A DNA stretch of 64,000 nt from an uncultured bacterium (GCA_903945195.1 CAJAUT010000009.1:23231-87230); one strand, 5' to 3'; shown: positions 40,846 through 59,437, counted from the first letter of the stretch. Notes: generated from the letters alone by a model not told the origin. Numbers and translations are program-made.

Positions 40846-41087
40846 AAAATATAGTTATCAACATATCTTGTGGGAAACTCAGTGGAAAGGTGAGGGGATG
40901 CGAATGTGGAGAACTTACACAATTGAGGATAACTAGAGTTGTCCACAAAGCAGGTGAGTTATTCACAAAGTTATCCACAAGGTTTTGCACGCGATTTACA
41001 GAGAGCTTTCCACGAATCCACCGGCTCTACTACTACAACTAGTTTATTTAATATATATTAGTGATAGCTATAAATAAGGGACAAATT
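40846..41087. other. oriC: DnaA-box cluster and AT-rich unwinding element between dnaA and dnaN
   Basis: ttgtccaca (40939), ttattcaca (40959), ttatccaca (40971), tttccacga (about 41007), then the AT-rich stretch agtttatttaatatatattagtgatagctataaataa at 41041-41077. Confidence 0.7.
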
Positions 41088-42185
41088 ATGAAAATAGAAG
41101 TTTTGCAAGAACAGCTCGTAGCCGGATTTAATATAGTGGGGAGAGCTGTGGCAAGTAGAGCTCAGCTACCCGTACTTTCTCACATCCTGATAGAGGCTAA
41201 AAATGAAGGGTTAGTATTGTCTGCGACAGACCTAGAGATAGGAATCAAAATAAAGGTGTCTGCAAAAGTGATAGAGCCAGGAGTGGTAGCGGTACCAGCC
41301 AAGATGTTTGGGGAGTTTTTGGCATCACTTAATCCTGGAAAGATAGAACTTAAGTCTGAAGGAGAATCTCTATCTTTGAAGGCACCTGGGTATAACGGGA
41401 AATTCCAGACTATAAATGCAGAAGAATTTCCTTTGATCCCAGAACTTTCCACAGAAGCCGAGATTTGTACTTTAGAAGCCAAGGCCTTGTCCACTGCCGT
41501 ATCTCAAGTCGTGTTTGCCAGCGCCAAAGATAGTTTACGCCCAGTGCTGACGGGCGTGCTCTGGGAGTTTTTGAAGAAAAAGGTGAGACTGGTAGCGACT
41601 GATGGGTTTAGACTGGCAGTGGAAGAGATCTCTGTCGACACGAAGACTGAGCTGACAAGTCTACTTGTCCCATCTAGAGTGGTGATGGAAGTGGTGAGAC
41701 TGGCTGGGGAAGAAAAAATCATAGTTGGACACTTACCAGCGACTAATCAGATTTATTTTGTGGTGGGTGAGACTCAGATAGTGTCTCAGCTATTGTCTGG
41801 TAATTTCCCGGACTATAACAAGATTTTGCCAAAGGAATTTACGACTGAAATCAAAGTGAATAAAGACGAGCTTTTGCAGGCTATAAAGGCGACTCATATC
41901 TTTGCTAGAGATAACTCTAATATGGTGAAGTGGCAAGTAGCTGAAGAAAAGCTAGTACTCTTGTCGAGTTCTCCAGAGCGAGGGGAATGTAGAGTAGAGG
42001 TGCCAATTACTCTGACTGGAGATGATATTGAGATAATATTCAACGCCAAGTATGTCCTTGATTTTTTGGGAATTGTCGGAGGGGATACACTGTGGATAGG
42101 ACTAGGAGGGAAGCTGTCTCCTGGAATGATTAAAGATGTCGCGCGTGAAAACGGGCAGTATGTGGTAATGCCGATAAATGCGTAA
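41088..42185 (+). CDS. dnaN: DNA polymerase III beta sliding clamp
   Basis: 365 aa from MKIEVLQEQL, typical three-domain beta clamp (the track start at 41061 gives 374 aa). Confidence 0.9.
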   Translation: MKIEVLQEQLVAGFNIVGRAVASRAQLPVLSHILIEAKNEGLVLSATDLEIGIKIKVSAKVIEPGVVAVPAKMFGEFLASLNPGKIELKSEGESLSLKAPGYNGKFQTINAEEFPLIPELSTEAEICTLEAKALSTAVSQVVFASAKDSLRPVLTGVLWEFLKKKVRLVATDGFRLAVEEISVDTKTELTSLLVPSRVVMEVVRLAGEEKIIVGHLPATNQIYFVVGETQIVSQLLSGNFPDYNKILPKEFTTEIKVNKDELLQAIKATHIFARDNSNMVKWQVAEEKLVLLSSSPERGECRVEVPITLTGDDIEIIFNAKYVLDFLGIVGGDTLWIGLGGKLSPGMIKDVARENGQYVVMPINA

Positions 42186-42194
42186 ATCTCCATT

Positions 42195-42281
42195 AAGATC
42201 TGACCCGGTCTCCTGATTGTGTTTTGAAGTCGACTAAACATCTTGGCCTTTGGCCAGGATTTCCTTAGCGGGTCAGACCTT
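42195..42281. repeat. MITE family A (copy A6), intergenic between dnaN and virB4
   Basis: agatctgacccggtctcctgattgtgttttgaagtcgactaaacatcttggcctttggccaggatttccttagcgggtcagacctt. The track ORF 41894..42298 is its translation. Confidence 0.8.
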
Positions 42282-44210
42282 GGGGGTTGGTTGTTCAAAG
42301 ATCGGAGATGATTCTTCTTTAGCTTTGGGTTCGACTGGCTGCGGTTCGACAGTCGGGGTGGATGCTACTGGTGCGGCCGGAGAATTGGTTTTGGTGGAGA
42401 GGAGTTTGTCGGCAAAAGCTTTTTGACGATCTAGAGTTTCTTGAGGATTGGTGGTGATCAAAATGTGTTCTTCGGGAGAAGCAACGACCTTCATAGCCAC
42501 GTGATTTTGGCCGGCAAAAAATAGAGCCTCTCCAACTTCGGCGGTGAGGAGTAGATGTCTTTCTCCTTGTGAGAGGAAGAAGGTTGTGGCCAACTTTTCT
42601 ATAGCGCTACTAGATTGCTTCATGAGCACCTGTAGGGAGGAGTTTGAGACGATAGCCTTGCCATGGTCGCTCTTTAGGAAGTCCTCGACGTCCTGGGTGA
42701 TTGTAGTGAGTCCCAGGAAGTATTTGCGGGCGCGCTTGGCTATGCCATAAAGGAAAGTGGCGGAATCTTCGGATTTCATGAGATACCACGCCTCATCGAC
42801 CACAAGTAGTCTTTTCTTGAGATCTCTTTTAACCTTGGTCCAAATATAATCGAGAATGATGAAAATGGCAGTTGGGCGGAGCTCGTCTGTTAGATTTTTA
42901 ATACCAAAAACAGTGAGCTGATTGCCAAAGTTGACGTTGGATTTTTGGGAGAAAATCCCTTGGAAAGAGCCCTTAACATATTTTTCGAGACGATCGGCGA
43001 GTCCACGAGCTACGGCTTCTTCCATGCCATTTAGGACTTTGTATAAATCTTCCATAAGCGGAGGTTCGTTTTTGTGGGTGGCAGGGTCCCGATTTATTCC
43101 CTTCATCTGATAGGTCATAACGAGTGCTCGATCAAGTAATGCTTCTTCTTGTGGACTCATAGTACCCATCATGATTTTGAGGAGTGAATGAAGCGAAATG
43201 ATTTTCATGGCTAGTTCGTTTTCGTCTGGCTCGTCCATCTGGGGAAGCTCAAAAGGATTAATACGGTTGGGGGAGCCAAAGGAAAAGTCGATATAGGTGC
43301 CCTTGATGGCGTCGGATAATTTGCGATATTCATCTTCTGGGTCGATGACAATGACCTCGGTATCAAAAAGGAGGGAGCGAAGGATTTCTAGTTTGACCAT
43401 ATAGGACTTACCAGAACCAGATTTGGCAAAAACCACCATGTTGGCATTTTCGAGAGTGAAGCGATCAAAGACGACGAGCGAGTCATTGTGTTCGTTAATG
43501 CCGTACATTAGTCCTTCGTTGGCTGTGAGTTCTGAGGAGGTGAAAGGGAAGGTTGTGGCGAGACTGGTGGTGTCCATATTGCGATTCATTTTTAGTTTGT
43601 CTAGGCCCGTGGGGAGCGTGGTTTTAAAGCCATCTTCTATTTGAAGGCTTGCGGTTTTGGCGACAATGAGGAGCGCTCCGAGAGCGGACTTAATGTGATT
43701 GGTGACCCGGTCTAGGACGTCCTTTTTATCATCGCGGATGGTGATGTAGAGCCCAAACTGGAAGAATCTCTCGGCACCTTTGGCTAGTTGTTCCTGAAGT
43801 GAGCGAGCATCTTCTAGCTTGACTTGAGTGTCGATATTGATGATGCGACCTCTTTGAATGTCTCCCTGAAGCTCTGCTTCCATTTCGGCGATCTTGCGGC
43901 GCAGATCTTCGATGACGCCTTTACCATCAATAGGATAGATAAACATGGAGATGGAGAGGGAGTGAGGGAAATTGATGAGGGGGGAGAGCCAATTGGCGTT
44001 GACGAAACGGGGATAGCCAGCGACAAAGAGTGTGCGATAGTAAGTGTCGTTGATTTTGATGTCGCTCCAGTCGACCTCGATGGCTTCTGGAGCAATGACA
44101 TCTTTGACATTGGTGGTGCCCTGAGAAAGTACTGTGACTGCAGTAGAGACGGCCGGTCCAGAGTTTTTTGAGTCGTCTTTTTTGCCACCAAGGGAGAAGG
44201 GCAGTTTCAT
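42273..44210 (-). CDS. virB4: Type IV secretion system ATPase VirB4/TrbE/CagE family
   Basis: Walker A VFAKSGSGKSYMVK, Walker B LLVVDEAWYLMK, 645 aa, CagE/TrbE-like C-terminal ATPase domain. Confidence 0.85.
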   Translation of the reverse strand: MKLPFSLGGKKDDSKNSGPAVSTAVTVLSQGTTNVKDVIAPEAIEVDWSDIKINDTYYRTLFVAGYPRFVNANWLSPLINFPHSLSISMFIYPIDGKGVIEDLRRKIAEMEAELQGDIQRGRIINIDTQVKLEDARSLQEQLAKGAERFFQFGLYITIRDDKKDVLDRVTNHIKSALGALLIVAKTASLQIEDGFKTTLPTGLDKLKMNRNMDTTSLATTFPFTSSELTANEGLMYGINEHNDSLVVFDRFTLENANMVVFAKSGSGKSYMVKLEILRSLLFDTEVIVIDPEDEYRKLSDAIKGTYIDFSFGSPNRINPFELPQMDEPDENELAMKIISLHSLLKIMMGTMSPQEEALLDRALVMTYQMKGINRDPATHKNEPPLMEDLYKVLNGMEEAVARGLADRLEKYVKGSFQGIFSQKSNVNFGNQLTVFGIKNLTDELRPTAIFIILDYIWTKVKRDLKKRLLVVDEAWYLMKSEDSATFLYGIAKRARKYFLGLTTITQDVEDFLKSDHGKAIVSNSSLQVLMKQSSSAIEKLATTFFLSQGERHLLLTAEVGEALFFAGQNHVAMKVVASPEEHILITTNPQETLDRQKAFADKLLSTKTNSPAAPVASTPTVEPQPVEPKAKEESSPIFEQPTPKV

Positions 44211-44256: not shown

Positions 44257-44895
44257 TTATTTGGTAATATTGGGGGCGACTATGGCTTGTTCGTAGTCGG
44301 AGGCTGTCGTGAACTTTTGACCTTTGACCGTCGAGTTATAAAGTGAGTGGAATAGCTTCATGAGATTCTGAGAGTTTACCTGTTCGGCAGCCAGTCCGAT
44401 TCTACTCAACTGTTTAATGATGTGGTCCCTTTTTGGTTCTAGATCGGCCTTGGCTTTTTGAATTAAGTCTTCAGTTATTTCTACTTTTCCAGAAAGGGTG
44501 ATGATTTGGTATGAAACTATCAAATAGAACTTTTTATCCAAAACATTTTGCTCTGTGATTGTAGTATCTATAAACTGGCGATAATTGTGCATGCGCTCTT
44601 TGAGAATTTCATCTTTAAGCTTTTTTTCTTGTGTGGCTAGTAGTTCTAGATAGGCGCTAATATCTTTTTTTTCAGATTTGATGACTATTTGAACCGGGAA
44701 AGAAAGGGAGTTGAGTAGTCCGGCATAGGCATAAATAGTCGCGTCTTGCTCTTCTTCAGATAGTAAGCCAAAATTGATTGCGGAAGTCTTTATGACAACA
44801 CTACAGATGCCGTTCTTTAGAATAACTAGATCATCTCGAATTGTTTCGATGTCTAAATGATCTTGGGTTGTTGCGACAATGATTGAGTCAGACAT
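44257..44895 (-). CDS. Hypothetical soluble protein in the T4SS operon
   Basis: 212 aa, no TM and no motif recognised; position between the PrgI-like gene and virB4. Confidence 0.35.
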   Translation of the reverse strand: MSDSIIVATTQDHLDIETIRDDLVILKNGICSVVIKTSAINFGLLSEEEQDATIYAYAGLLNSLSFPVQIVIKSEKKDISAYLELLATQEKKLKDEILKERMHNYRQFIDTTITEQNVLDKKFYLIVSYQIITLSGKVEITEDLIQKAKADLEPKRDHIIKQLSRIGLAAEQVNSQNLMKLFHSLYNSTVKGQKFTTASDYEQAIVAPNITK

Positions 44896-44951: not shown

Positions 44952-45953
44952 TTAAACTGTAACTCTTAACTCTACGGGTGAGAGGATAGTGTTATTTACG
45001 ACTATTTGTTGTGGAGCAAAAGTGAGGCCCATCTTATCTACCTCTATCACATAGGTGGCTGGGGAAAGAGGCGTGGAAGTATAAAATTGGCCCAAGGAAT
45101 TGGTTTTCATTGCCCGCTGGGGGATTCCGTCGCTACTGACTATTTGGACAATGGCATTTTCTATCAATTTCCCGCTTTGATCTACCACAGCGCCAGTAAT
45201 TAAATTGGGATCTTTGGGGGAGGCGGGAAGAGATATATTTTTTGGGGCAGTTCTTTCTGGGGCGGCACGTGATTGGGGGGCTGACGGGGCTGTAAAGATG
45301 GTGTTTGTAACCTGTTTGACTAGTCCTGGCGTCACAATGACCGCTTCTTTGGGAATGGGGGTGGAATCTGGAAGTGGTGTATGTAAGACAATTCCTGCGA
45401 CCTCTGTGGCAGGATTCAATTTTCTAACCAAGATTGAAGGTTTGGTAATTATTTCTTCTACTTTTTTTAGCGTCGAATCTGTCTGAGTGATTTGAGGCAC
45501 AGAACTAAATAAGCCATCTAGAGATTTTACGATACTAGCCTCCTTCTCGGTTAAGTCTGAGATGGATGACTGATTACTAGCGGCTACTGGAGCTTTGATG
45601 GTTTTTGTAATGGTGGTGATGACTTCTGGAGCGTGGGCCTCAAATAAAAACAGTCTAGGGATTTTGTTGGTTTTTTGCCAGGTGAATCTTGTGGGAGCAT
45701 AGATGGATTTGATAAAGTTGATGATCCACTGATCGAGGGGGCGATCTTCTAGAGGGAAAAATGCGAGTCCGGCTCCAAAGAGGAGAGAGAGGATAACTAG
45801 TGGCCATTTGACTATAAAAATAAGATTACTGGCAAAGAAAAGATAGGCCAATACCATACCGCTGGCTAATTCTAAGAACTGTTTAAGGGTCATGTCTCCT
45901 ACCAGGCGAAACTGGTATTGAGTGACATTTTGTGGGATTGGATGTTGTTGCAT
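44952..45953 (-). CDS. PrgI/VirB3-like two-TM protein with a C-terminal Pro-rich linker and beta-sandwich-like domain
   Basis: N-terminal GDMTLKQFLELASGMVLAYLFF...WPLVILSLLFGAGLAFF resembles the PrgI-family FGLTxRQ + 2 TM pattern; C-terminal carboxypeptidase-regulatory-like fold guess. Confidence 0.4.
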   Translation of the reverse strand: MQQHPIPQNVTQYQFRLVGDMTLKQFLELASGMVLAYLFFASNLIFIVKWPLVILSLLFGAGLAFFPLEDRPLDQWIINFIKSIYAPTRFTWQKTNKIPRLFLFEAHAPEVITTITKTIKAPVAASNQSSISDLTEKEASIVKSLDGLFSSVPQITQTDSTLKKVEEIITKPSILVRKLNPATEVAGIVLHTPLPDSTPIPKEAVIVTPGLVKQVTNTIFTAPSAPQSRAAPERTAPKNISLPASPKDPNLITGAVVDQSGKLIENAIVQIVSSDGIPQRAMKTNSLGQFYTSTPLSPATYVIEVDKMGLTFAPQQIVVNNTILSPVELRVTV

Positions 45954-46644: not shown

Positions 46645-49512
46645 TTACTTCTTTCTAAGGCATCCACTAATAAGAGATTTTGCGTAAAAACAACCCGATG
46701 TCCCAGAATCTGGGCGTACTATACCAGGGCCTGTGGCGTTGGCATCTACACAAGTAAATTTTTGACCTCCAGCATCTGGATTGATTACAACCCCTATGTG
46801 ACCGACAGTTTTATCACCACACTCATCTACTCCCATGATAAAAAGATCTCCTGACTGCATATTTGGACAACCAACCAAATATTTATATCCTTCTACTTTA
46901 TATGAGGCGTACATACAGGCATTTACTTGCGGAAAACCTGGTCCGGCGCTAGCGGCCGCCAATCCAACACACTGAAGATGTTTTTCGGTTGTTGGCCAAC
47001 CATCTGTAAATTGTGAAGTTTCTAGTTGAGAGACTGCGCCTTCAAATGGCTTCAGAGCAGCAATAACACACTGCCATTTTGGGCTAGATATGCCGCCTAT
47101 CATGAGGGGATTTAACTTACAGTCGGTAAGAGCTTTGTAGATACATTGGGCTGCGTTTGCGACTGGATTGTTTGTAGTAGTGCCGCTTATGTCACAAACA
47201 ACGGAGGCACCAATAGTTCCAGTTTCTATTTTTGAGGTGATGATGGCGTCGTTGCCAAGAGACATGGAAAGAGTGATGCCTCCAACTGCAACAACAATAG
47301 AGGTTGTGGCTATAGAGCTAATAGTGGCGCCTACACTGTTTACAAATCCAGCCCACCAAGCGCTAACTAGTGCTCCTGCAGAGCCAAGCGCCGTAGAAGC
47401 CCAACCAGCGATTGCTCCTGCTTGAGAATATAAATATCCTAGTAATGCTCCAAGTGCAGTCCCTATCATAAGTACTCCCCATAGTGGTAAGGAAAACCCA
47501 ATGAGGAAAAATGAAACTAGGGCCACACTAAAGCCAATGATTGCACCGAGGATTGTGGGACCAGCTATCCCCATGAGCATGGCTAGTCCAGCAATGTTTT
47601 TGAGTACCCAACCCGCAATGACGTCTGCATTTTTTATCGCTTCTGGTGCTCTTTTGGCTTGTTGCATGACCCAGAGTCCAGCCTGGATGGCAAAAGATGC
47701 CCCTCCAGAAAGAGATCCAGCAACTAACCCAGCGCCCACCCAAGCTAAAAACTTCCCGGCAAGTTTTTCTCCACCAATTTTGGCGCCTTGTTTGACTAGC
47801 CAGTTGCCAAATTTGATGCGGAAGTGGGTTTTTGCTGAACCAATAAATCCTTCATACGAATACCCACCATTTTTGTACCAAGTGAGTCCTGTTTTGAGCC
47901 ATTGCGGCAGGTTTTTATTTGTGGCAATTTTTGAAATCCATCCACCCCATGATGCCAGTCGATGATCTGAAGAAAGAAAAAAAGCGATAGTTCTATGATT
48001 GTTTAAAAAACCATTATATGCTGTAGAAATACTTTCTCGAACACTGGTAACGGCGCCATAAACATTTCTGATAATAGGGATGTTTTGTGGGGACAGGGCG
48101 GTTTTGATTTTAAGAACGGCTTGATCGTAGGCGAGCCTAGATTTGTAGACACTGTCAATTAGGCCATGGTTTTCGCCGAGATATTTTTGAAGGTTGTCTA
48201 ATTGAGATTTGATGTCAGACGGGCTATATCCAGATTTTAATAATTGACTGGCAAGCTGTTCTCCCGAATAACCACTTCTGGTTAAAGTGACGATTAGCGG
48301 ATCTACGCCAGAATTTTTGGCAATGTGTGAGACTAGGCTGGCTGGCCTTAATCCTAAAATATCTGGTAAATCTCCAGCACTTGGTTCTAGGCCATTGGTA
48401 ATGCGGGCAAAATAAGTCCCAGTAGAGGGGTGATTGAGAGCCGCTTCTATAAGTCGATCTTGATCAACTTGTGTTAAATTGTATTTTTTGATTAATTCTG
48501 GGGTGATGGCGTTGCGCAGAGCCCTAACTTCGAAAGGGTCTTTTTTGATAAATCTATCGCTAAGCGAGGGCGATTCTAATGCATCAATAGTTGCTGAATG
48601 TAGTGATTTAACTAGATCATTACCCAAAGAATTTGGGTTGTCTCTACCCACGCCAGTCTCTTTTTGCCAGGAATTGATGGTGTTTTGAAGCTCATCTTTG
48701 GCCTGCGTGGGAGTGAGACCATGTTGTTTGTTGATATTTGCAAGACTTTCGAGATTTTCGTCTGTGTCTGATTTACTGAACCTCTCATTGTTGAGGAGAG
48801 TTGAGAGGTTTGTGGTGATATGGTCTACGTCCTGCCCTTCGGCAACGAGCGTGTTTTGGAGGGCTCTCCAGGTTGGAGAATTGGCTACGGCTTGATCTAG
48901 GAGGGCCTTGGTTTGGGCCTGGGCTTTAACTGGATCTGTAGTATCTATATTGTGAAGGGCGGGTGATAGTTCGGCTATCAAACTATTTTGCATTTGTCTG
49001 ATGTAGCCTGAAGAGGCCGAGCCAGATCTAGTCAGTGGCTCTAGAGCCTGTGCGACACGAGAATCTAGGAGATTTTTTGTTTGCCAGTACTTTTGAGCCC
49101 GCCTAACGGATTCGTTGTAGGCATTGATCTCGACCTTTGGATTTGTGGTTTTTTGGTCAACTTCTTCTAGGTGTGTTTGGTAGGCCCGGAGGATGTTTTC
49201 TCTGGTTTCTCTATCTGGGATGGAAGACTCTTTTTGTTTGTTGGCAAAAAGCAAAATACTATTGTATAGAGGGCGATAATTGGAGGGATTTTCCAGATCT
49301 AAAATCTTATCGCCAAGGAGGTTGTTGCGCTGGAAATCATCGACCAATGCTTTGACTTCACGATTGGTAAAGACGACTTTGGAGTCGCCGCTACCCAGCT
49401 CATAATCGTCTTTGGGGTGGCGGATGAGCTGAGAGACTAGTTCTAGCACTCCAAAAGGGGTACCAAAATTGCGAACTAGCTCTGATTTGGTAAGGTTGGC
49501 CATATACTCCAT
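46645..49512 (-). CDS. Large T4SS-associated protein: N-terminal soluble region, VirB6-like polytopic membrane segment, C-terminal CHAP (NlpC/P60-like) peptidoglycan hydrolase domain
   Basis: 955 aa; Gly/Ala-rich TM cluster in the middle (GLAMLMGIAGPTILGAIIGFSVALVSFFLIGFSLPLWGVLMIG...); C-terminal Cys...His arrangement (LQCVGLAAASAG...GCPNMQSGDLFIMG...GHIGVV) typical of CHAP domains. Confidence 0.55.
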   Translation of the reverse strand: MEYMANLTKSELVRNFGTPFGVLELVSQLIRHPKDDYELGSGDSKVVFTNREVKALVDDFQRNNLLGDKILDLENPSNYRPLYNSILLFANKQKESSIPDRETRENILRAYQTHLEEVDQKTTNPKVEINAYNESVRRAQKYWQTKNLLDSRVAQALEPLTRSGSASSGYIRQMQNSLIAELSPALHNIDTTDPVKAQAQTKALLDQAVANSPTWRALQNTLVAEGQDVDHITTNLSTLLNNERFSKSDTDENLESLANINKQHGLTPTQAKDELQNTINSWQKETGVGRDNPNSLGNDLVKSLHSATIDALESPSLSDRFIKKDPFEVRALRNAITPELIKKYNLTQVDQDRLIEAALNHPSTGTYFARITNGLEPSAGDLPDILGLRPASLVSHIAKNSGVDPLIVTLTRSGYSGEQLASQLLKSGYSPSDIKSQLDNLQKYLGENHGLIDSVYKSRLAYDQAVLKIKTALSPQNIPIIRNVYGAVTSVRESISTAYNGFLNNHRTIAFFLSSDHRLASWGGWISKIATNKNLPQWLKTGLTWYKNGGYSYEGFIGSAKTHFRIKFGNWLVKQGAKIGGEKLAGKFLAWVGAGLVAGSLSGGASFAIQAGLWVMQQAKRAPEAIKNADVIAGWVLKNIAGLAMLMGIAGPTILGAIIGFSVALVSFFLIGFSLPLWGVLMIGTALGALLGYLYSQAGAIAGWASTALGSAGALVSAWWAGFVNSVGATISSIATTSIVVAVGGITLSMSLGNDAIITSKIETGTIGASVVCDISGTTTNNPVANAAQCIYKALTDCKLNPLMIGGISSPKWQCVIAALKPFEGAVSQLETSQFTDGWPTTEKHLQCVGLAAASAGPGFPQVNACMYASYKVEGYKYLVGCPNMQSGDLFIMGVDECGDKTVGHIGVVINPDAGGQKFTCVDANATGPGIVRPDSGTSGCFYAKSLISGCLRKK

Positions 49513-49536
49513 TCTATCATCTGAGAATGGTATAAT

Positions 49537-52500
49537 TTGGGCATGGCAGAAAAGGAAAAATTAAGCGAGGTTAAAGAACTAGAGAGAATGGTGCGCTCTG
49601 GTGAGACGGATGCTAGTGGCGAAGATAAGGACGGACTTAAATTCCTAGAGCAACTCATGGTGTTTATGAAGTTGAAGTTGCTGAGAAAAACAACTGAAAC
49701 GGGTGGGGTAAAAAAAGAAACAATAGACAATCTAGAAAAAGATTTACTTGGGTCAGATAAAGATAAAAAAGAAAAAGCAAATCTTAACCTTGAAAGTCTT
49801 TTAAAGAAGATGGTGGGAATTGAGACTGGCATAGAGAATCAATCGATTGACGTATTAATTGCTAAGGCAAAAATGCCTGAAGATCAGAGAGATCATGCTA
49901 CCGCTCTCGAGATGAGAGTCATTGAGCTGAAAAATGGTGAATATACTGGCGATAAAAAGGCGGAAGCCGAATCTATAACAAAAGGATTTTTACAAATCAG
50001 CGAGAGTGTTGGTATCTTAAAGACGGGTGAGAAGACTAAAGAGCAAATAGTGACAAAATTAAATGCAGAACTATCTGAGGTTAATGAAATTAAGCGAAAA
50101 CTAGAAGTAGTAAAAGTAAAAGAAGAAGTAAAGACTGAAAAGGGCGCAAAAGAAAGAGTAAATGTGGCAAAGAGTAAAACACTTGAGTTCGTAAACAAGG
50201 AATTGAAAGACGGTAAAGACAGAGTTACTAAAGTTCGCGTGGGGAAATCTGATGATAGGCGGGGTAGATTGTTGCAAAAAGATATAGACGATTTTTTGAA
50301 AGTTGTCCAAACAGAGGTAAATGATCCTAGGCAAATGGAAGACCTTAAGTCTGATGATTGTATAGATAGAATATACAAAATCAACCAGCTAGCTAGGTTG
50401 GCTTCAAAAATGCAATCTCCTAGCTTGGCCACTGACAACTTTTTTGAGATGCAAATTCCATATATGGACCAACTAAAGAATAAGTTAAAGGATGACAAAA
50501 TACAAAATGGGGAAGAGGTGTATAAATTTGTTCAAGAGGTCTGGTACAGCAAAAAGCTACCCAATCCAGAAGAGCTTGGAAAGAAACTTCTAAATATTAC
50601 TAGTGGTAAGAGGGGTGAAGAGACTGCTAGGACCACAACCCGTCGAGATGGATCTAAAAAAGATGGGGCGGATTTGTTGTATGAGAACGGAGAGGATCCA
50701 CTACAGTTTATTCAAGATGCTTTGGGATTTGAACAAAAAAGCAGGAGGGCCCCCGGATCGATCATGCTAGAACAGATTAAGGACTTACTAGAAAACAATG
50801 GCCTTGATGTTATTAAATTAGAAGGCACCTTTAAAGGGCGTAGCAGGGAAGAATTTGCTCAAGCAATGCAAATGAAATATGGTTTTGAACCTAATCAAGC
50901 TGGCTTACTCTATGATTCTATCTTCAAGAACAGAACAGCATTTAGAAATGAAGCCTTTACGAAATATTTGGAATCAAAAGACTATAAGGGTTATACGGGC
51001 GCCCTGATATCATATCTGTCCAAGGTGGGCTTGCGCGAGGGAATGAATGATTTACAACTAATGAGTCTCATGAATGATGCTCGATTTACTCTGGCTGAGG
51101 CAGGTCCAGAAGGAGAGAAGCTACTAAAGGTGTTTAAGTCGTTTGAGAGCATAGCATTTTTCCATGACAAATACTTTAACTTGGGCGCAAAAGAGTATTC
51201 TGAGATATTGAACCATTTGGGTGATGGGCCTTTGTGGGTTTGGTTGCAGGAGCATGCAGATGTACTAAGGGAAGAAATCACCTTTACAGAGGGGCCAAAA
51301 AGAGGAGAGAAGGCTAGCGTGTCAGTTCTTGAAATACATGACATGATGCAATCACAATATTGGTCTAAACGACTTGTCTATACTCCGCCAATTCGAGAAG
51401 GAGAGTTGTTTGACGAAATGATGCTGAGTCATTTGCTGAACGGGGACGAGCCAATTGTCATAAAAGAAAACGGTGATATTTTTGATATGAACAAAAAATT
51501 ATTGGGAAACAAAAATCATGATCTCATGGTGGATGGTCAGCCCAAATCTTTGGCAGCATTAATTACTGATTCTAGGTGGAAGGTGGGAACTGCACAGGAC
51601 ATATGGCGTTTTACTGGTCGTAATTTAAATATCTTGGATGACGTCGATATCGCTAAAGCACTAGGAGTTAACAAAGCCCTGCTTGGGATAAGTAAAATAT
51701 GTAGATATAGCGAGCAATATGAATTCATCAGTTCTTATCAACACGAAATAATGGGTGCTGATACATTCCTTTATGATTTTGATTGGTACAAAAATACCTT
51801 TGGAAAGGGGTTGAAAAAACTATTTGGAGAAGCGGGGATAGAGGCAAAACAAGCTGAGCTGATACAAAAGCTAATTTCAAAACACATCATGAGTAAAAGG
51901 CGCGTCGGAACTGAGGTCTTTGATGGAAGTAATCTGGCAATAGAGGATGTAAAGCTCTTGGCGAGTGGGTCGAAGCGAATGACTTTTGATGAAGCTAAAA
52001 CAGAATATTTGGGTAGACTTGCCAAGAGGGGAGAAGATATTTCTAAAATAAGGATAGATCCAAACGATGCCAGTGATAAATATGCGATGCAAGTTAATTT
52101 ACTCATGGAAAAATGGAATGACAATGCATTTAGTGAGGATGAAATGGCACAAATTAATGCACTTCCTTGGGACAAAATTAACAAAATTTATGCAAAAAGA
52201 CTAGGAAAAGAAAGTAGCGCAGTGGGCAATGACTTTAAAGGGTTTATAGATAACTTCTCGTACGCCAGGCTATCTGAATACGTAGAGAGTTTACGTGGTA
52301 CAGACATGAAGGACTATGGCGGATACTACGCTATCGCGGCTGAGGCAGTGGCTGGCGCTATTAAAGCTGGACTAGCAAATGGGTCTTCTGAGGCACTAGC
52401 TAAGATGATTGGAGCTATGGAAACTTATCATCCTTATGATGCAAATGGGCTTAATAGACTAGGGCTTGCGATGTGGAGAGAGGTACTGACATGGAGAACT

Positions 52501-52887
52501 CATAAGCTAACTAGACGCGTACCAAAACAATCTGGTGGATATGTCCTGCCAAATGGTGACCTAATGGTGAACAAATATGGTAGGTGGGAAAAAGAGATGA
52601 AGACTGAAATTTTACTCCCTGGAGAAAGTTTGATGAGTAAGTATAAATATCTTGTGACTTGGGGGTTTGAAGATGTAGAGATGTCAATGAGGTTTTTGGT
52701 TGGTAGTGGGATATTTACAAGAAAAGATGGCGATGCAGAGCTGTTTAATCGGTTTGGACCAGCGGCATGGAGATGGTTGCGTAGAGCTATACAGCTAAAT
52801 GACTGGGAATATTTCTGGATCCAACTAGAGAAGGATGGGAACGAAGAAATGAAAAGCGTCTTTAAATATATATTTTCAACAAAATAA
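49537..52887 (+). CDS. Very large hypothetical protein (1116 aa), divergent from the CHAP gene within the T4SS locus
   Basis: Long open frame with a Lys/Glu-rich coiled-coil-like N-terminal 300 aa; no Walker, HUH or other motif recognised; the only plus-strand gene in the 42-59 kb locus. Confidence 0.5.
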   Translation: MGMAEKEKLSEVKELERMVRSGETDASGEDKDGLKFLEQLMVFMKLKLLRKTTETGGVKKETIDNLEKDLLGSDKDKKEKANLNLESLLKKMVGIETGIENQSIDVLIAKAKMPEDQRDHATALEMRVIELKNGEYTGDKKAEAESITKGFLQISESVGILKTGEKTKEQIVTKLNAELSEVNEIKRKLEVVKVKEEVKTEKGAKERVNVAKSKTLEFVNKELKDGKDRVTKVRVGKSDDRRGRLLQKDIDDFLKVVQTEVNDPRQMEDLKSDDCIDRIYKINQLARLASKMQSPSLATDNFFEMQIPYMDQLKNKLKDDKIQNGEEVYKFVQEVWYSKKLPNPEELGKKLLNITSGKRGEETARTTTRRDGSKKDGADLLYENGEDPLQFIQDALGFEQKSRRAPGSIMLEQIKDLLENNGLDVIKLEGTFKGRSREEFAQAMQMKYGFEPNQAGLLYDSIFKNRTAFRNEAFTKYLESKDYKGYTGALISYLSKVGLREGMNDLQLMSLMNDARFTLAEAGPEGEKLLKVFKSFESIAFFHDKYFNLGAKEYSEILNHLGDGPLWVWLQEHADVLREEITFTEGPKRGEKASVSVLEIHDMMQSQYWSKRLVYTPPIREGELFDEMMLSHLLNGDEPIVIKENGDIFDMNKKLLGNKNHDLMVDGQPKSLAALITDSRWKVGTAQDIWRFTGRNLNILDDVDIAKALGVNKALLGISKICRYSEQYEFISSYQHEIMGADTFLYDFDWYKNTFGKGLKKLFGEAGIEAKQAELIQKLISKHIMSKRRVGTEVFDGSNLAIEDVKLLASGSKRMTFDEAKTEYLGRLAKRGEDISKIRIDPNDASDKYAMQVNLLMEKWNDNAFSEDEMAQINALPWDKINKIYAKRLGKESSAVGNDFKGFIDNFSYARLSEYVESLRGTDMKDYGGYYAIAAEAVAGAIKAGLANGSSEALAKMIGAMETYHPYDANGLNRLGLAMWREVLTWRTHKLTRRVPKQSGGYVLPNGDLMVNKYGRWEKEMKTEILLPGESLMSKYKYLVTWGFEDVEMSMRFLVGSGIFTRKDGDAELFNRFGPAAWRWLRRAIQLNDWEYFWIQLEKDGNEEMKSVFKYIFSTK

Positions 52888-52902
52888 TTTAAGTTAAAAA
52901 GT

Positions 52903-54417
52903 TTATTTGGCTTTTCCGCCTGGTTCTTGTGGAGCACTACTGAGACCTGTGTTGCGGATTTGATTTCCAAGCATTTTGGATTGGAGGCGGGCTGCGCGCT
53001 CTTGCTGGAGACTGGAGATGTAGGCTTTGGGTAGGTATGAGGCTGCGCCATAGCCCTGTCCAATACCAGCCATGATCTCTGAGGTGTATTTGCTCTGCTC
53101 GACCTTTAGCGTGTCTCTGGTCATTTGGGCAGCTGCTGGGACCATCATAATGATAAAGATACCCAGGAGTGCCATAAAGGTTTCTTGGATACTAACTGGC
53201 GTGGTTACTTCAGAATTGTCGACAAAAGATAAAAATGGTGGAACCCATCTGGTAGAATCGGTCTCTCCACCCTGTAGATATCCCGTATTTACCTCGAATG
53301 GATTTACTTGATTACCTTCAATGACTAGTTTTTCTGTACCAGGTCCCATCAGTATGGCTCCAAATAATAACATGGCTAGCACTGTGGGGAAAACGGCTGC
53401 ATTGGCTAGTAGATTTCTAGCCCAGTTGGAAAAAGATTTTGATCCAGGTATACCGTTCATTAGTAGTTGAAGGGGAGACACCACAGTTAGGACGATGATC
53501 ATAAAGTATGACTGCATCAATTGCCAGAGAGTCTTGAACATGCCAATAAGTACTCCTAGTCCTATCACGGCAAATGCTAGTCCTTGAGTGACTCCACCTA
53601 GTTTGGCTAAGCCACTAGAAGCAGTGATTTGGTCTGTAAAAGAACCAATGGCTAGGGCTGCGATTGTGTGGATTCTATCTCTACCAGATAACATCATATA
53701 CATGATGTTGTTGTTTAACACTTTATCCATCACTCCACCCGCATCTTTGATGAGACTTCCAGCTTCGGCGATATAAACTATTAAATACATAGATAAGTAA
53801 ATGAGGTCAACAATAAATCCCGCAATGGCGTACGAGAAGGTAATGAGTAGAAGAGTGACTAGTAAGTTGGGGAGACTATTTTGGATGGAAATGATGGTTT
53901 GAGCATTTATCTTTGTCCTGAGCATGATCATGACCCCGATAACTAAGAAGATTATGATGTAAAGAGAATAGGCTACATTTCTAAAAGCTTTCCAGATTTG
54001 TAAGACTGGAGATAGTGCTTTGTAACCAATTCCTTGAGCTTGGACTTTGGTAAATCCAGGAAGCCCAATATTGTTGCCTAGATCGGCGAGATATTCGCCC
54101 GTATTGATTGGTGGCACCATAAGCGCAGTTGTAACGTACTTGGTAATTCTAGGTGTGATGCCAGAAACTGCTTGAGATCCGTCGGCAGAAGGGGAGTAAC
54201 CAACAATATATTTTTCTTGCGACATTTCTTCTGAACTGACAGTGGCACCAATGTCTGAATCTGGTGAGCAGCCGCTGACGTTGCATCCTACGGCAAAAGT
54301 ATAGGTTTCAAAAAGTCCACGACTAGGGGCGACTTGTCCATCTGCGGCGCGCGCCATTGTGACAAAAGAAAATGCGGACACGAGAAGGAGTGTAAAGATA
54401 GATAGTATTTTACGCAT
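52903..54417 (-). CDS. VirB6/TrbL-like polytopic membrane protein with a signal peptide
   Basis: 504 aa; signal peptide MRKILSIFTLLLVSAFSFVTMARA; at least 6 TM helices with Gly-rich segments; no enzymatic motif. Confidence 0.5.
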   Translation of the reverse strand: MRKILSIFTLLLVSAFSFVTMARAADGQVAPSRGLFETYTFAVGCNVSGCSPDSDIGATVSSEEMSQEKYIVGYSPSADGSQAVSGITPRITKYVTTALMVPPINTGEYLADLGNNIGLPGFTKVQAQGIGYKALSPVLQIWKAFRNVAYSLYIIIFLVIGVMIMLRTKINAQTIISIQNSLPNLLVTLLLITFSYAIAGFIVDLIYLSMYLIVYIAEAGSLIKDAGGVMDKVLNNNIMYMMLSGRDRIHTIAALAIGSFTDQITASSGLAKLGGVTQGLAFAVIGLGVLIGMFKTLWQLMQSYFMIIVLTVVSPLQLLMNGIPGSKSFSNWARNLLANAAVFPTVLAMLLFGAILMGPGTEKLVIEGNQVNPFEVNTGYLQGGETDSTRWVPPFLSFVDNSEVTTPVSIQETFMALLGIFIIMMVPAAAQMTRDTLKVEQSKYTSEIMAGIGQGYGAASYLPKAYISSLQQERAARLQSKMLGNQIRNTGLSSAPQEPGGKAK

Positions 54418-56992: not shown

Positions 56993-57274
56993 TTACAGAC
57001 CGAGCTTGAACTGAGTGACTCTGGCACCAGTTAAGTTCTCTATGAGAAGTAAAATGAGCCAACTGCCAATAGCCAATGCTATGCCGGCGATTGCGCCTCC
57101 CATGATACCTTTACCTTTTTTCATAGAATCTGGATTTCCGGCGCCAGTTAGAAAAGTAAAGCCTCCTACGAGGATCATGATGAAAGAAATAAGACCGATT
57201 AGGGGAATAATAGCCAAAAGAACATTCCCAATATATAGAGATAGATCTGAGAGTTGAGCCGCTTCTTCTTCCAT
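56993..57274 (-). CDS. Small two-helix pilin-like protein, paralog P7 (most divergent)
   Basis: 93 aa: TM1 ...ILVGGFTFLTGAGNPDSMKKGKG..., TM2 IAGIALAIGSWLILLLI; same architecture as P1-P6. Confidence 0.55.
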   Translation of the reverse strand: MEEEAAQLSDLSLYIGNVLLAIIPLIGLISFIMILVGGFTFLTGAGNPDSMKKGKGIMGGAIAGIALAIGSWLILLLIENLTGARVTQFKLGL

Positions 57275-57288
57275 GAAATCATTATAGC

Positions 57289-57315
57289 AAAAAGTCCCCT
57301 CGCGGGGACTTTTTG
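57289..57315 (-). terminator. Intra-operon rho-independent terminator between pilin-like paralogs P6 and P7
   Basis: Perfect hairpin agtcccc-tcgc-ggggact with T/A runs on both sides (aaaagtcccctcgcggggacttttt). Confidence 0.55.
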
Positions 57316-57335
57316 AATAAATTTAACTAAAGATC

Positions 57336-57686
57336 TTAGTAGGCTTTTGGTGGAGTAATGTTGCCACCCAAGATATCGATACCAAAGAAATATTGGATGA
57401 TAAGCATGACAGCCCAAGCTGAGGCTACGACTGCTAGACCAACTAGAGCAGCGGTGATACGATCGCGAGCTTCTTGAGTTTTGCCTTTGTCACCACCTGA
57501 ACTAATCCACTGAATACCACCCCAGATAAGGAACATAAAGACCATAAGAGCTGAGACAAGGAGTGCTCCTTGGACCGCGCCTTTGATGAGGGTGCCGATA
57601 TTTGTGATAGCAACTCCTTCTGGTTTGCTAATGGATAAATCTGGAGCAGCGGGGGCTGCTTGCGCTAACTTGACTAGAAATGACAT
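57336..57686 (-). CDS. Small two-helix pilin-like protein, paralog P6
   Basis: 116 aa: ...LIWGGIQWISSGGDKGKTQEARDRITAALVGLAVVASAWAV... Confidence 0.6.
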   Translation of the reverse strand: MSFLVKLAQAAPAAPDLSISKPEGVAITNIGTLIKGAVQGALLVSALMVFMFLIWGGIQWISSGGDKGKTQEARDRITAALVGLAVVASAWAVMLIIQYFFGIDILGGNITPPKAY

Positions 57687-57724
57687 ATTATTTTCTCCTT
57701 TTCTTAATATTAGTTTTTATTTTA

Positions 57725-58024
57725 TCATTTAGCAAGACCAATGCCGAGGAAGTAATCGATGAGTAGGTATACAGCCCAGGCCGAAGCCACTATAGTTAGC
57801 CCGATAATGCCGTTGGTAATTTTACCTTTTGCTTCTTCTAGCTTTCCCTTGTCTCCGCCACTCATGATCCATTGAACTCCACCATAAACTAAATACAAGA
57901 AAGTGGACAAGCCGGCTACCAATAAAATAGCTCCAAATGATTTTTGAACAAAAACTCCAAGAGATTCGTTGATTGCTATCCTTGATTTAGCTTCGGTGCC
58001 GATATTTACATTAAATGATCCCAT
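57725..58024 (-). CDS. Small two-helix pilin-like protein, paralog P5
   Basis: 99 aa: ...LVYGGVQWIMSGGDKGKLEEAKGKITNGIIGLTIVASAWAV... Confidence 0.6.
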   Translation of the reverse strand: MGSFNVNIGTEAKSRIAINESLGVFVQKSFGAILLVAGLSTFLYLVYGGVQWIMSGGDKGKLEEAKGKITNGIIGLTIVASAWAVYLLIDYFLGIGLAK

Positions 58025-58028
58025 AAAT

Positions 58029-58367
58029 TTATCCTGCTGTAGGCCAACTAAAGTTTAGTATATCCATATTGATGGCGGATTCAATGAATTTGATGATTAC
58101 ATAAGAGGCCGCTAGGATCACTAGGCCTACTAGACCTTGAGTGATCTTGCCTCTTGCTTCTTCAATTTTACCCTTGTCTCCACCAGCTGTGATCCAGGTC
58201 ACCCCGCCAAGAAGGAGATAGAGTAAAAATGCTAGCCCTCCCACCAAGATGATTGTTTGCCAAAGGGTGGCGATGGTGATAGCAAACTGACCAGCCTGGG
58301 TTTCGTTGGCAGCTCCTCCTCCTGGTACAGCTAGATTTGTGATTTGGGCAAGTGCTTTTTTAATCAT
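58029..58367 (-). CDS. Small two-helix pilin-like protein, paralog P4
   Basis: 112 aa: ...LLLGGVTWITAGGDKGKIEEARGKITQGLVGLVILAASYVI... Confidence 0.6.
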   Translation of the reverse strand: MIKKALAQITNLAVPGGGAANETQAGQFAITIATLWQTIILVGGLAFLLYLLLGGVTWITAGGDKGKIEEARGKITQGLVGLVILAASYVIIKFIESAINMDILNFSWPTAG

Positions 58368-58371
58368 ATGT

Positions 58372-58743
58372 TTATTGGAACTTTATGACTCCCGGTGAAA
58401 TCAATGATGCGGGATTTAATATGTTGATACCAAGTGCTTGTCCTACGATCCAGACTATTGAGTAGGAGAGGGTGATGACGATCATGCCGATAGCGCCATT
58501 TGTCATCATGCCCTTGGCTTTGTCGATTTTACCTTTGTCACCGCCGGCCGTGATCCAGTTGAGACCGCCTAGAAGGAAATATAAAACAAAAGCTATACCC
58601 GCTACGACTGTAAGGATGACTAGTACGTTGCTGACGAGCTTTTCTACGGCTCCCGTTGCGCCTGCTACGCCATCTCCTGGCTGATAACCTCCTGGAGTGG
58701 TAATCTTGGAAAAATCTATACCCTGAGCAAGTAGTTTTGTCAT
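58372..58743 (-). CDS. Small two-helix pilin-like protein, paralog P3
   Basis: 123 aa: ...FLLGGLNWITAGGDKGKIDKAKGMMTNGAIGMIVITLSYSI... Confidence 0.6.
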   Translation of the reverse strand: MTKLLAQGIDFSKITTPGGYQPGDGVAGATGAVEKLVSNVLVILTVVAGIAFVLYFLLGGLNWITAGGDKGKIDKAKGMMTNGAIGMIVITLSYSIVWIVGQALGINILNPASLISPGVIKFQ

Positions 58744-59099
58744 GGTGTTGCGCTCCCTGGTCCAATAATTTTGGGTGTCAATATAGCCCCTGCATTACCA
58801 AATAACACAAAGGAGATGATGCCTGTGATGGCCGCCGCTGCAACCATGATAACTAGCCCAATGAGAGAAGTGGTAATAGATTGCTGGGCAGCCTCGATCT
58901 TTTTTTGGTCACCCGCTGCAGTTATATAGCTGAATCCGGCAATCATGAGGTTAAAAAATGTCCAAAGTCCACCCACTACAAAGATGATGGTAACGACATT
59001 GGTAATAAATGCAGGCAGCCCTGTGCTGACGTCTGTATAGCCGTTTGAACCTACTTTTGTGAGTGGATTTATGATGTCTGTGCCTAGTAATCCTGCCAT
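58740..59099 (-). CDS. Small two-helix pilin-like protein, paralog P2
   Basis: 119 aa: ...LMIAGFSYITAAGDQKKIEAAQQSITTSLIGLVIMVAAAAI... Confidence 0.55.
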   Translation of the reverse strand: MAGLLGTDIINPLTKVGSNGYTDVSTGLPAFITNVVTIIFVVGGLWTFFNLMIAGFSYITAAGDQKKIEAAQQSITTSLIGLVIMVAAAAITGIISFVLFGNAGAILTPKIIGPGSATP

Positions 59100-59101
59100 A
59101 T

Positions 59102-59437
59102 TTATAAACTCGAATTAAGTATCTGTACCCCTGTAACTACCTGGATAATTTGGATAATCCAGTAGGAAGCAAAAAGTACTAATAATCCTATTATAGCAGA
59201 GGTGATAGTTTTGGTGCCTTCTTCGATCTTGTGAGGGTCACCCGCATTGGCGATGATAGTAAATCCTCCAAAAATTATCATAAAAAAGATAACTAGACCT
59301 CCGGCGACATATATGTTTGGGACGATGTTGTTGATTAAATCTCCCACGCCGGTATAGGCAGTTGTTGCACTATCTTTTTGAAATCTTAAACAGTCACCTA
59401 AATTTGTAGGACATTCCATGTTTTGAGTATAGCGCAA
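59102..59437 (-). CDS. Small two-helix pilin-like protein, paralog P1 (operon-proximal)
   Basis: 111 aa: ...IIFGGFTIIANAGDPHKIEEGTKTITSAIIGLLVLFASYWI...; starts 19 bp from the divergent sigma-factor gene. Confidence 0.55.
   Translation of the reverse strand: MRYTQNMECPTNLGDCLRFQKDSATTAYTGVGDLINNIVPNIYVAGGLVIFFMIIFGGFTIIANAGDPHKIEEGTKTITSAIIGLLVLFASYWIIQIIQVVTGVQILNSSL

Follow-up and report, generated by a model that had tools for sequence, protein, structure and literature searches.

What does a large soluble protein do when its gene stands alone on the opposite strand inside a type IV secretion system (T4SS) locus? The question is raised by a 64,000-nucleotide stretch of DNA (CAJAUT010000009.1:23231-87230, referred to here as the window), whose source genome is that of an ultra-small, Microgenomates-group bacterium of the Patescibacteria, or candidate phyla radiation. 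The locus encodes a machine already known from Patescibacteria, a T4SS that Wang et al. 2023 (PMC10633639) and Quinonero-Coronel et al. 2025 (PMC12102498) have described: it is related to monoderm conjugation machines, lies beside the origin and has a pilin array, and a relaxase or coupling protein is lacking in its vicinity. In the one genetically tractable species, a saccharibacterium, epibiotic growth depends on this system, and no substrate is known for T4SSs of this kind (PMC10633639, PMC12102498, PMC12857230). The gene in question, ORF1114, occupies positions 49543..52887 on the plus strand and encodes a protein of 1114 residues (127 kDa, isoelectric point 6.2). What is new is an uncharacterised family in a newly recognised variable slot of this known kind of system. 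Microgenomates-type loci have a slot, fixed in position, probably transcribed separately and never empty, for one large soluble orphan protein, and between near-identical genomes this protein either is swapped or has diverged beyond recognition. The slot protein is therefore a candidate T4SS substrate or specificity determinant. Neither the opposite-strand soluble gene nor its hypervariability is described in the open-access text of the two papers or of a review (PMC10633639, PMC12102498, PMC12857230).

An earlier note, made from the sequence alone, had described an open reading frame (ORF) of 1116 codons at 49537-52887 on the plus strand, and this longest form, opening with TTG at 49537, is present as claimed. 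The ATG at 49543 is the likelier start, since the database protein P0001 (100% identity over 1114 residues) begins there and since a conserved promoter element, TGgTATAAT, lies 6 nt upstream. Homologues of 1090-1255 aa align with ORF1114 from end to end at 17-77% identity. Comparison with the 77%-identical orthologue yielded proportions of nonsynonymous and synonymous differences (pN and pS) of 0.14 and 0.72 and a nominal dN/dS of about 0.07, with dS saturated, indicating purifying selection; the least conserved part is residues 200-500 (dN 0.29-0.41 for residues 201-500). Judged by these full-length, collinear homologues and the low nominal dN/dS, ORF1114 is a real, selected gene and not a chance ORF. 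Nothing in it suggests a fusion of pseudogene fragments or a frameshift. It is the sole long plus-strand ORF between 42.2 and 59.4 kb, the other plus-strand ORFs there being short and nested in minus-strand genes. The short gaps reported on both sides were also recovered: 24 nt to the divergent neighbour with the longest-ORF starts (49512/49537), or 39 nt with the preferred starts (49503/49543), and 15 nt (52888-52902) to the convergent one.

These neighbours, p955 (46645..49503, minus strand) and the polytopic membrane protein p504 (52903..54417, minus strand), flank the slot, whose occupant lies between a p955-like and a p504-like gene and is oriented against both. Searched exhaustively with HMMER (E <= 1e-3), 1.84 billion representatives yielded only 11 relatives of ORF1114. 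A word-index search gave only 3 close homologues, the search with the family alignment included, probably because low-complexity Lys/Glu words swamp the candidates. Wherever the context of a family member could be read, the gene lies in this slot with this opposite orientation, even at 17-22% identity, which strongly supports linkage to the T4SS. Identity to ORF1114 is 77% in L001/L004, 58% in L002, about 30% in L005 and L006, 22% in L008 and 17% in L007, and four metagenome loci (L035, L036, L037 and L043) also carry a family member in the slot. The family, as yet unnamed, is thus characterised by a length of about 1090-1255 aa, shared motifs and this slot, and ORF1114 has all three. The L005 contig (CAYGFS010000002.1) is titled 'uncultured Pseudomonadales bacterium' and carries a complete Microgenomates-type T4SS locus with a TrsD 89% identical to that of the window, so that the label is probably wrong.

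Does the slot exist outside this one family? A metagenome scan with TrsD returned 80 loci, and the slot count rests on the 21 that contain a p504-like gene and sequence beyond it. All 21 show the p504-like gene followed by a convergent ORF of 399-1255 aa on the opposite strand; its product lacks any transmembrane (TM) helix or has, at most, a single hydrophobic segment at the C-terminus. No slot is empty, each locus has exactly one such gene, and the protein length is typical of the clade (1084-1255 aa in the clade of the window, 545-771 aa in most sister-clade loci). In the sister clade, whose TrsD is about 50% identical, the p955-like gene has moved downstream of VirB4, and the slot gene is still convergent with the VirB6-like gene. 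The 21 slot proteins fall into 9 families without detectable mutual similarity by iterative searches and profile-profile comparison. One sister-clade family (L048, L060, L061 and L068) ends in a hydrophobic, tail-anchor-like stretch, GGFLGGILFFIFAPILEF, which the other families lack. Some close relatives (TrsD 81-88%) have rearranged loci, on short contigs: L028 (3-4468) has a same-strand ORF of 468 aa with a faint glycosyltransferase match before the p955-like gene, where the divergent slot gene is expected, and in L018 and L022 several inserted genes separate PrgI from the p207/p955-like genes.

The fixed position could mean that ORF1114 is a passenger, for instance a cytoskeletal or regulatory gene, kept there only by rigid origin-proximal synteny. 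The whole neighbourhood from dnaA to the sigma factor gene is syntenic in these genomes, ORF1114 has no detectable domain, and there is no functional evidence of any kind. Yet the sister-clade rearrangement leaves the slot gene convergent with the VirB6-like gene, no family member turned up elsewhere in the 1.84 billion representatives, and a housekeeping gene would not be swapped for unrelated sequences between genomes with 98% identical DnaA. We therefore consider a passenger quite improbable.

Inside the locus, evolutionary rates differ. Comparison of the window with L006 gives identities of 86% for VirB4, 82% for TrsD, 60-82% for the pilins and 71% for DnaA, whereas ORF1114 and p207 are only 30% and p504 37% identical, and p955 and p872 are alignable only in part. 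The genes of the T4SS locus thus form two rate classes. The contrast is sharpest between L061 and L066, whose DnaA and DnaN are 98%, VirB4 97% and PrgI 92% identical, whereas their slot proteins (769 and 696 aa) have no similarity. Between these two loci, the p504-like proteins are 33% identical, the p955-like proteins 40% over part of their length, and the products of the following gene (about 350-400 aa) 23%; the pattern suggests that a block of T4SS envelope genes has been exchanged or diversified. Slot identity does not track core-gene identity (Spearman 0.02-0.24).

L009 provides a second case, closer to the window. Its TrsD is 90% identical to that of the window, yet its 1088-aa slot protein falls outside the ORF1114 family. 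The L009 family comprises 12 clusters, 11 of 1084-1118 aa and one of 648 aa with 58% coverage of the query; no cluster has a Pfam domain, and both members whose context was read (L089 and L090) sit in the identical slot of the identical locus. Profile alignment of the two families by hhalign gave a weak match (probability 2.7%, E 0.017), collinear over 190 C-terminal columns and taking in the NFSY, D...Y and W-W...LD motifs; all other profile-profile tests between slot families were negative. Because this weak match is collinear, extreme divergence of one ancestral protein is as possible as replacement.

What kind of protein occupies the slot in the window? ORF1114 has no TM segment, no hydrophobic segment and no signal-like N-terminus. 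Walker A, HUH and HExxH motifs are all absent, in agreement with the earlier note, which had found no ATPase, relaxase or peptidase motif. The 11 relatives, like ORF1114 itself, match no model in Pfam, NCBIfam, PHROGs or PADLOC, and the family profile retrieved nothing from the PDB sequences at E up to 10. A single-sequence PDB search gave a weak 14-3-3 match (E ~0.01), which was judged helical noise and disappeared with the family profile. An identity as VirB6 or TrbL was also rejected, with zero TM segments against at least 5 expected; it is the neighbour p504 that has that topology. AlphaFold2 (AF2) modelling was unusable with 3 sequences (pLDDT 41) and usable with 11 (pLDDT 73.7, pTM 0.57), yielding a compact multi-domain body. 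Foldseek searches with this model found nothing significant in the PDB (best E 0.3, TM-score ~0.1) or in BFVD (best E 0.012, TM-score ~0.1), and profile self-comparison detected no internal repeats.

In the AF2 model, a charged N-terminus of low confidence (residues 1-28, 49543..49626, pLDDT below 50; all coordinates in this paragraph are on the plus strand) precedes a Lys/Glu-rich, all-helical region (residues 29-353, 49627..50601, from composition and model). The first ~400 residues contain about 20% Lys plus Arg and about 20% Asp plus Glu. The earlier note had described the N-terminal ~300 residues as Lys/Glu-rich and coiled-coil-like; the charge and the predicted helicity stand, but the predicted helices, of 12-31 residues (the longest 25-31) and split by loops, do not appear to make one long coiled coil. 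A conserved amphipathic helix, FLEQLMxFxKLKLLRK (residues 33-48, 49639..49686), is found in 12 of 13 family members, the other, P0013, having no N-terminus. A probable disordered linker follows (residues 355-406, 50605..50760; pLDDT below 50, gapped and variable in alignments), and then the conserved alpha-rich globular region with four small beta elements (residues 407-1114, 50761..52884), which holds nearly all invariant residues. Three motifs mark this region. The signature Y-x3-L-x2-Y-x3-VG-[LP]-RE-x3-D (residues 484-506, 50992..51060) has Y484, L488, Y491, V495, G496, E499 and D503 invariant or nearly so in 13 sequences. The second, NF-x-[YF] ... [ST]-D-x2-[DN]-[YF]-x2-Y (residues 904-928, 52252..52326; F905, D921 and Y928 invariant), aligns weakly with NLSYE...EGDWLNKYSKY of the L009 family. 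The C-terminal helices, WRWxKRxxxLDDP...KYIFS (residues 1076-1114, 52768..52884; R1077 and K1108 invariant), are modelled as helix with a net charge of about 0 and might possibly form a docking or recognition element. Further family motifs are NK-x-[LI] and YK, and across the family the C-terminal motif reads WRWxKR-x3-[LF]D[DSE]P. The (near-)invariant residues, which are Tyr, Glu, Asp, Asn, Lys, Arg, Gly and Trp, lie in collinear motifs; none of the conserved motifs could be assigned to a known active site. The many invariant polar residues, such as E499, D503, N710, K711, K750 and D921, indicate a specific activity or interface.

Could this activity be the processing or recruitment of DNA? 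A non-canonical relaxase or coupling factor, as suggested before, would be a large soluble product of a T4SS locus, and loci of this kind are described as lacking recognisable relaxase and type IV coupling protein (T4CP) genes (PMC12102498). The invariant Tyr residues of the family include Y307, Y722 and Y928. However, no P-loop, HUH/three-His motif or N-terminal TM helix is present, and neither His nor Cys is invariant among the 11-13 family members. The 11 relatives match no relaxase or T4CP model in Pfam and NCBIfam, ORF1114 itself gave no AAA_10, TraG or T4SS-DNA_transf match, and the isoelectric point of 6.2 and the composition suggest no basic surface. Hypervariability is incompatible with a conserved nucleic-acid enzyme, as unrelated occupants accompany VirB4 proteins that are 97% identical, and the locus is chromosomal, in a housekeeping context and without mobile-element features. 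This role is therefore extremely improbable, and the suggestion is not supported.

The expression of ORF1114 appears to be separate from that of the machine. Two back-to-back extended -10 boxes were found in the 39-nt gap, supporting the shared divergent promoter region that had been suspected: TGgTATAAT (49528..49536, plus strand), 6 nt upstream of the ATG at 49543 and probably the promoter of ORF1114, and TGaTAGAAT (49511..49519, minus strand), 7 nt upstream of the ATG at 49503, for the p955 operon. Both boxes are kept, with a spacing of 6-8 nt, in 7 loci whose proteins are 17-77% identical, that of ORF1114 as TGnTA(T/A)AAT-N6-8-ATG. Because of the conserved minus-strand box, p955 is taken to start at its second Met (952 aa), a start that is also called on contig L003. 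The window has 9 copies of the pattern TGnTAnAAT-N5-8-ATG, where shuffles give 1.4 (6.5-fold enrichment), and 7 of the 9 copies open long ORFs against 0.05 expected: 5948(-), 11602(+), 15202(-), 25632(-), 49503(-), 49543(+) and 57274(-). The gene at 11602 encodes leucyl-tRNA synthetase, and that at 57274 the pilin-like p93. The mRNAs of ORF1114 and p955 are thus probably leaderless, and genes of this genome appear commonly to start in this way, with an extended -10 promoter and no leader. From this arrangement we infer that ORF1114 would be transcribed by itself, the other two putative transcription units running from p93 to p504 and from p955 to VirB4. The stretch 49509-49530, which takes in both -10 boxes, contains a perfect 7-bp inverted repeat, CCATTCT-N8-AGAATGG; this is probably not a general operator, being kept only in the closest relatives (L001 and L002) and largely a by-product of the -10 boxes.

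Large soluble, signal-less, non-ATPase proteins encoded in characterised T4SS loci are, as a rule, translocated substrates, examples being relaxases, the Sog and TraC primases, VirE2 and CagA. On the strength of this rule, and because family-level turnover against a conserved engine is the pattern of host-interaction proteins, we favour, tentatively, ORF1114 as a T4SS-dedicated exported substrate, either an effector or a translocator; its own conserved promoter, implying separate expression, counts for the same reading. Both the export and the role in host interaction are what we infer. ORF1114 would be transcribed alone, as a leaderless mRNA, from its own extended -10 promoter, back to back with that of the p955...VirB4 operon. 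The 127-kDa product, with its charged helical N-terminal region, disordered linker and 700-residue alpha-rich C-terminal region, would be made in the cytoplasm, recruited at the VirB4/VirB6-like base of the machine and exported to the surface or interior of the host cell, where it might act as effector or translocator. The rapid turnover at family level would then reflect adaptation to different hosts or host defences.

The earlier note had listed a secreted effector among its options, and this one gains indirect support: the protein is soluble, without Sec signal or ATPase motif, and its slot is hypervariable against conserved VirB4, TrsD and pilins. Several observations weigh against export. 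No T4SS signal of the BID, XVIPCD or E-block type was found by Pfam in ORF1114 or in its 11 relatives, and in place of a positively charged or disordered tail the C-terminal 30 residues are predicted to be helical with a net charge of about 0; a lineage-specific signal may reside in the conserved WRWxKR...LDDP...KYIFS. No Pfam domain, and no effector-like enzymatic domain, was detected in any of the 9 slot families. Neither a T4CP nor a relaxase was found in the locus, and the ten largest ORFs elsewhere in the window are housekeeping or envelope genes, such as those for leucyl-tRNA synthetase, GroEL and major facilitator superfamily transporters, with no T4CP or relaxase among them. The neighbours p955, p504, p872 and p207 are equally or more variable than the slot. 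One always-present gene per locus, with a clade-typical length across unrelated-looking families, looks more like an obligatory machine part than accessory cargo. Finally, the T4SS cluster of Southlakia has no equivalent opposite-strand soluble gene (PMC10633639, supplementary tables).

These points lead to the main rival, the possible, though rather unlikely, case of a fast-evolving, non-exported cytoplasmic subunit, a scaffold, adaptor or gate acting on the VirB6-like protein, the N-terminal region of p955 or VirB4/TrsD. Such a subunit might functionally replace the missing coupling protein and co-evolve with the other variable parts as a specificity module. Besides its constant presence as a single copy of clade-typical length in the same slot, the slot gene lies beside the two machine genes that are otherwise the most variable and has a promoter region in common with one of them, and the weak collinear match to the L009 family (hhalign E 0.017, 190 columns) fits one structurally constrained, quickly diverging ancestral component. 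The top Foldseek matches in the PDB are alpha-solenoid scaffolds (Kap123, Pds5, STAG2 and separase), and in Southlakia SEML1_0011 and SEML1_0013 fuse ARM-repeat-like soluble domains to T4SS membrane proteins. However, those matches are not significant (best E 0.3, TM-score ~0.1), and an alpha-solenoid (ARM/HEAT) scaffold was rejected, as ORF1114 has no internal repeats and the Kap123, Pds5 and STAG2 matches are at E 0.3 or worse with a TM-score of ~0.1. A partner of VirB4 and TrsD, which are 82-97% conserved, would be expected to be conserved too, and slot identity shows no co-variation with that of p955 or p504 (Spearman -0.02 and 0.20). It also counts against such a subunit that we know of no large non-ATPase cytoplasmic subunit in any T4SS.

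Export may also end outside the host. ORF1114 could be a T4SS-exported extracellular protein, such as a pilus tip or adhesin, a ruler or tape-measure-like protein, or a host-envelope translocator, which decides which host is engaged. The seven VirB2-like pilin genes imply a pilus that needs a host-binding end (PMC12102498). In addition, receptor-binding, ruler and ejected proteins typically keep their length while their sequences are hypervariable, and tape-measure, minor tail and internal virion proteins make up the weak BFVD matches. Known T4SS pilus-tip proteins of the VirB5 family and Gram-positive adhesins use Sec signals. ORF1114, unlike these, has none; its AF2 model is compact and multi-domain rather than an extended fibre, and the BFVD matches are not significant (best E 0.012, TM-score ~0.1). 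An adhesin, another suggestion of the earlier note, is not supported in its classical, PrgB-like form, as ORF1114 has no signal peptide, TM helix, LPXTG or other wall anchor, or adhesin domain. Taken as a whole, an extracellular end point is improbable.

Returning to the exported substrate, we can extend the proposal to the slot itself, which would be a cassette for cargo or host specificity: one obligatory exported protein, delivered into or onto the host, and exchanged or diversified between close epibionts. The exchange would be likened to that of receptor-binding or ejection proteins of phages. We regard this extension as distinctly doubtful. If it is true, the slot family of a genome would predict its host range, and one of the slot families, of which there are at least nine, would have ORF1114 as its first member.

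The closest parallel for an exported ORF1114 is CagA, from the cag T4SS of Helicobacter pylori: the likeness lies in large size (about 120-145 kDa), a mostly helical make-up, the lack of a signal, restriction to one lineage, variation between strains and a single in-locus gene. More generally, ORF1114 may be compared with other in-locus T4SS substrates, such as VirE2 and the Sog/TraC primases. However, no sequence or fold similarity between CagA and ORF1114 was detected, and ORF1114 has no nearby chaperone gene like cagF or coupling protein like Cag-beta. CagA is encoded at the island edge and is translocated, whereas ORF1114 is internal, fixed and convergent with the VirB6-like gene, and its export is only proposed.

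Two further parallels concern the machine and its products. The extended VirB6 proteins of Rickettsiales and others likewise tie a large hydrophilic polypeptide genetically to a VirB6-type channel subunit (PMC12857230); ORF1114, however, is a separate opposite-strand gene with its own promoter and no TM segment, and p504 carries no such extension. Rulers, tape-measure and ejection proteins (YscP/FliK, the phage tape-measure protein and T7 gp16) are comparable by analogy only, as single-copy, in-locus, signal-less proteins of divergent sequence and clade-typical length. They are exported by their machines, whereas export is only proposed for ORF1114; no significant structural match was found, and the C-terminal region of ORF1114 is globular with invariant polar residues rather than a low-complexity helical rod.

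Among known Patescibacterial systems, the T4SS of Southlakia epibionticum (SEML1_0006-0019) has the same VirB4 with a TrsD-like protein, PrgI/VirB3, pilin array, TM peptidoglycan hydrolase and adjacency to dnaA/dnaN, and likewise no relaxase or T4CP in the cluster. It differs in having no opposite-strand soluble gene and in carrying ARM-repeat-like soluble domains fused to membrane parts (SEML1_0011 and SEML1_0013). The equally long SEML1_0007 (1113 aa) was rejected as an orthologue of ORF1114, because it has a C-terminal peptidase and corresponds to p955.

The engine lies next to dnaA (39478-40845) and dnaN (41061-42185), both on the plus strand. The minus-strand genes matched by library searches are the ATPase part of VirB4 (42273-44210), a TrsD-like homologue of the VirB4 N-terminus (44257-44895) and a PrgI/VirB3-like protein (44952-45953). 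Between PrgI and p955 lies p207, also on the minus strand, with a TM segment and an Ig-like domain. p955 is the first gene of the operon p955-p207-PrgI-TrsD-VirB4 and the most variable gene of the locus (0-62% identity); it has a signal-less N-terminal region of about 630 residues, hydrophobic segments at 631-752 and a peptidoglycan-hydrolase-like C-terminal end (Amidase_5, a weak match at E 0.027). The hydrolase module changes between orthologues, being Peptidase_M23 in L001 (7118-9961), Amidase_2 in L002 (362-3313) and CHAP in L008 (984-4289).

On the other side of ORF1114, p504 has 7-9 hydrophobic segments and no Pfam VirB6 match; only its topology and position mark it as VirB6-like. A scarcity of VirB6 homologues in Microgenomatia has been ascribed to extreme divergence (PMC12102498), and this agrees with the variability of p504 here. 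Beyond it, p872 (minus strand) lies between p504 and an array of seven VirB2-like pilin genes (56993..59437, minus strand), p93 and six others, followed by a sigma factor gene on the plus strand. The seventh pilin gene, p93 (56993-57274, minus strand; T4SS_pilin, E 3e-5), runs into the start region annotated for p872, is preceded by an extended -10 box of its own and is kept in all loci. In the sister clade, the VirB4 frame of L088 (10647-14660) measures 1325 aa, about twice the usual length, and may be an assembly artefact or a fusion with a downstream gene. Only one 2-kb bin of the window (1-64000) lacks a positive GC skew, so that the cumulative skew rises almost without break, and its sign does not change at dnaA/dnaN (39.5-42.2 kb), the presumed origin region. 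A replication fork leaving dnaA rightwards would meet the T4SS operons head-on and run co-directionally with ORF1114.

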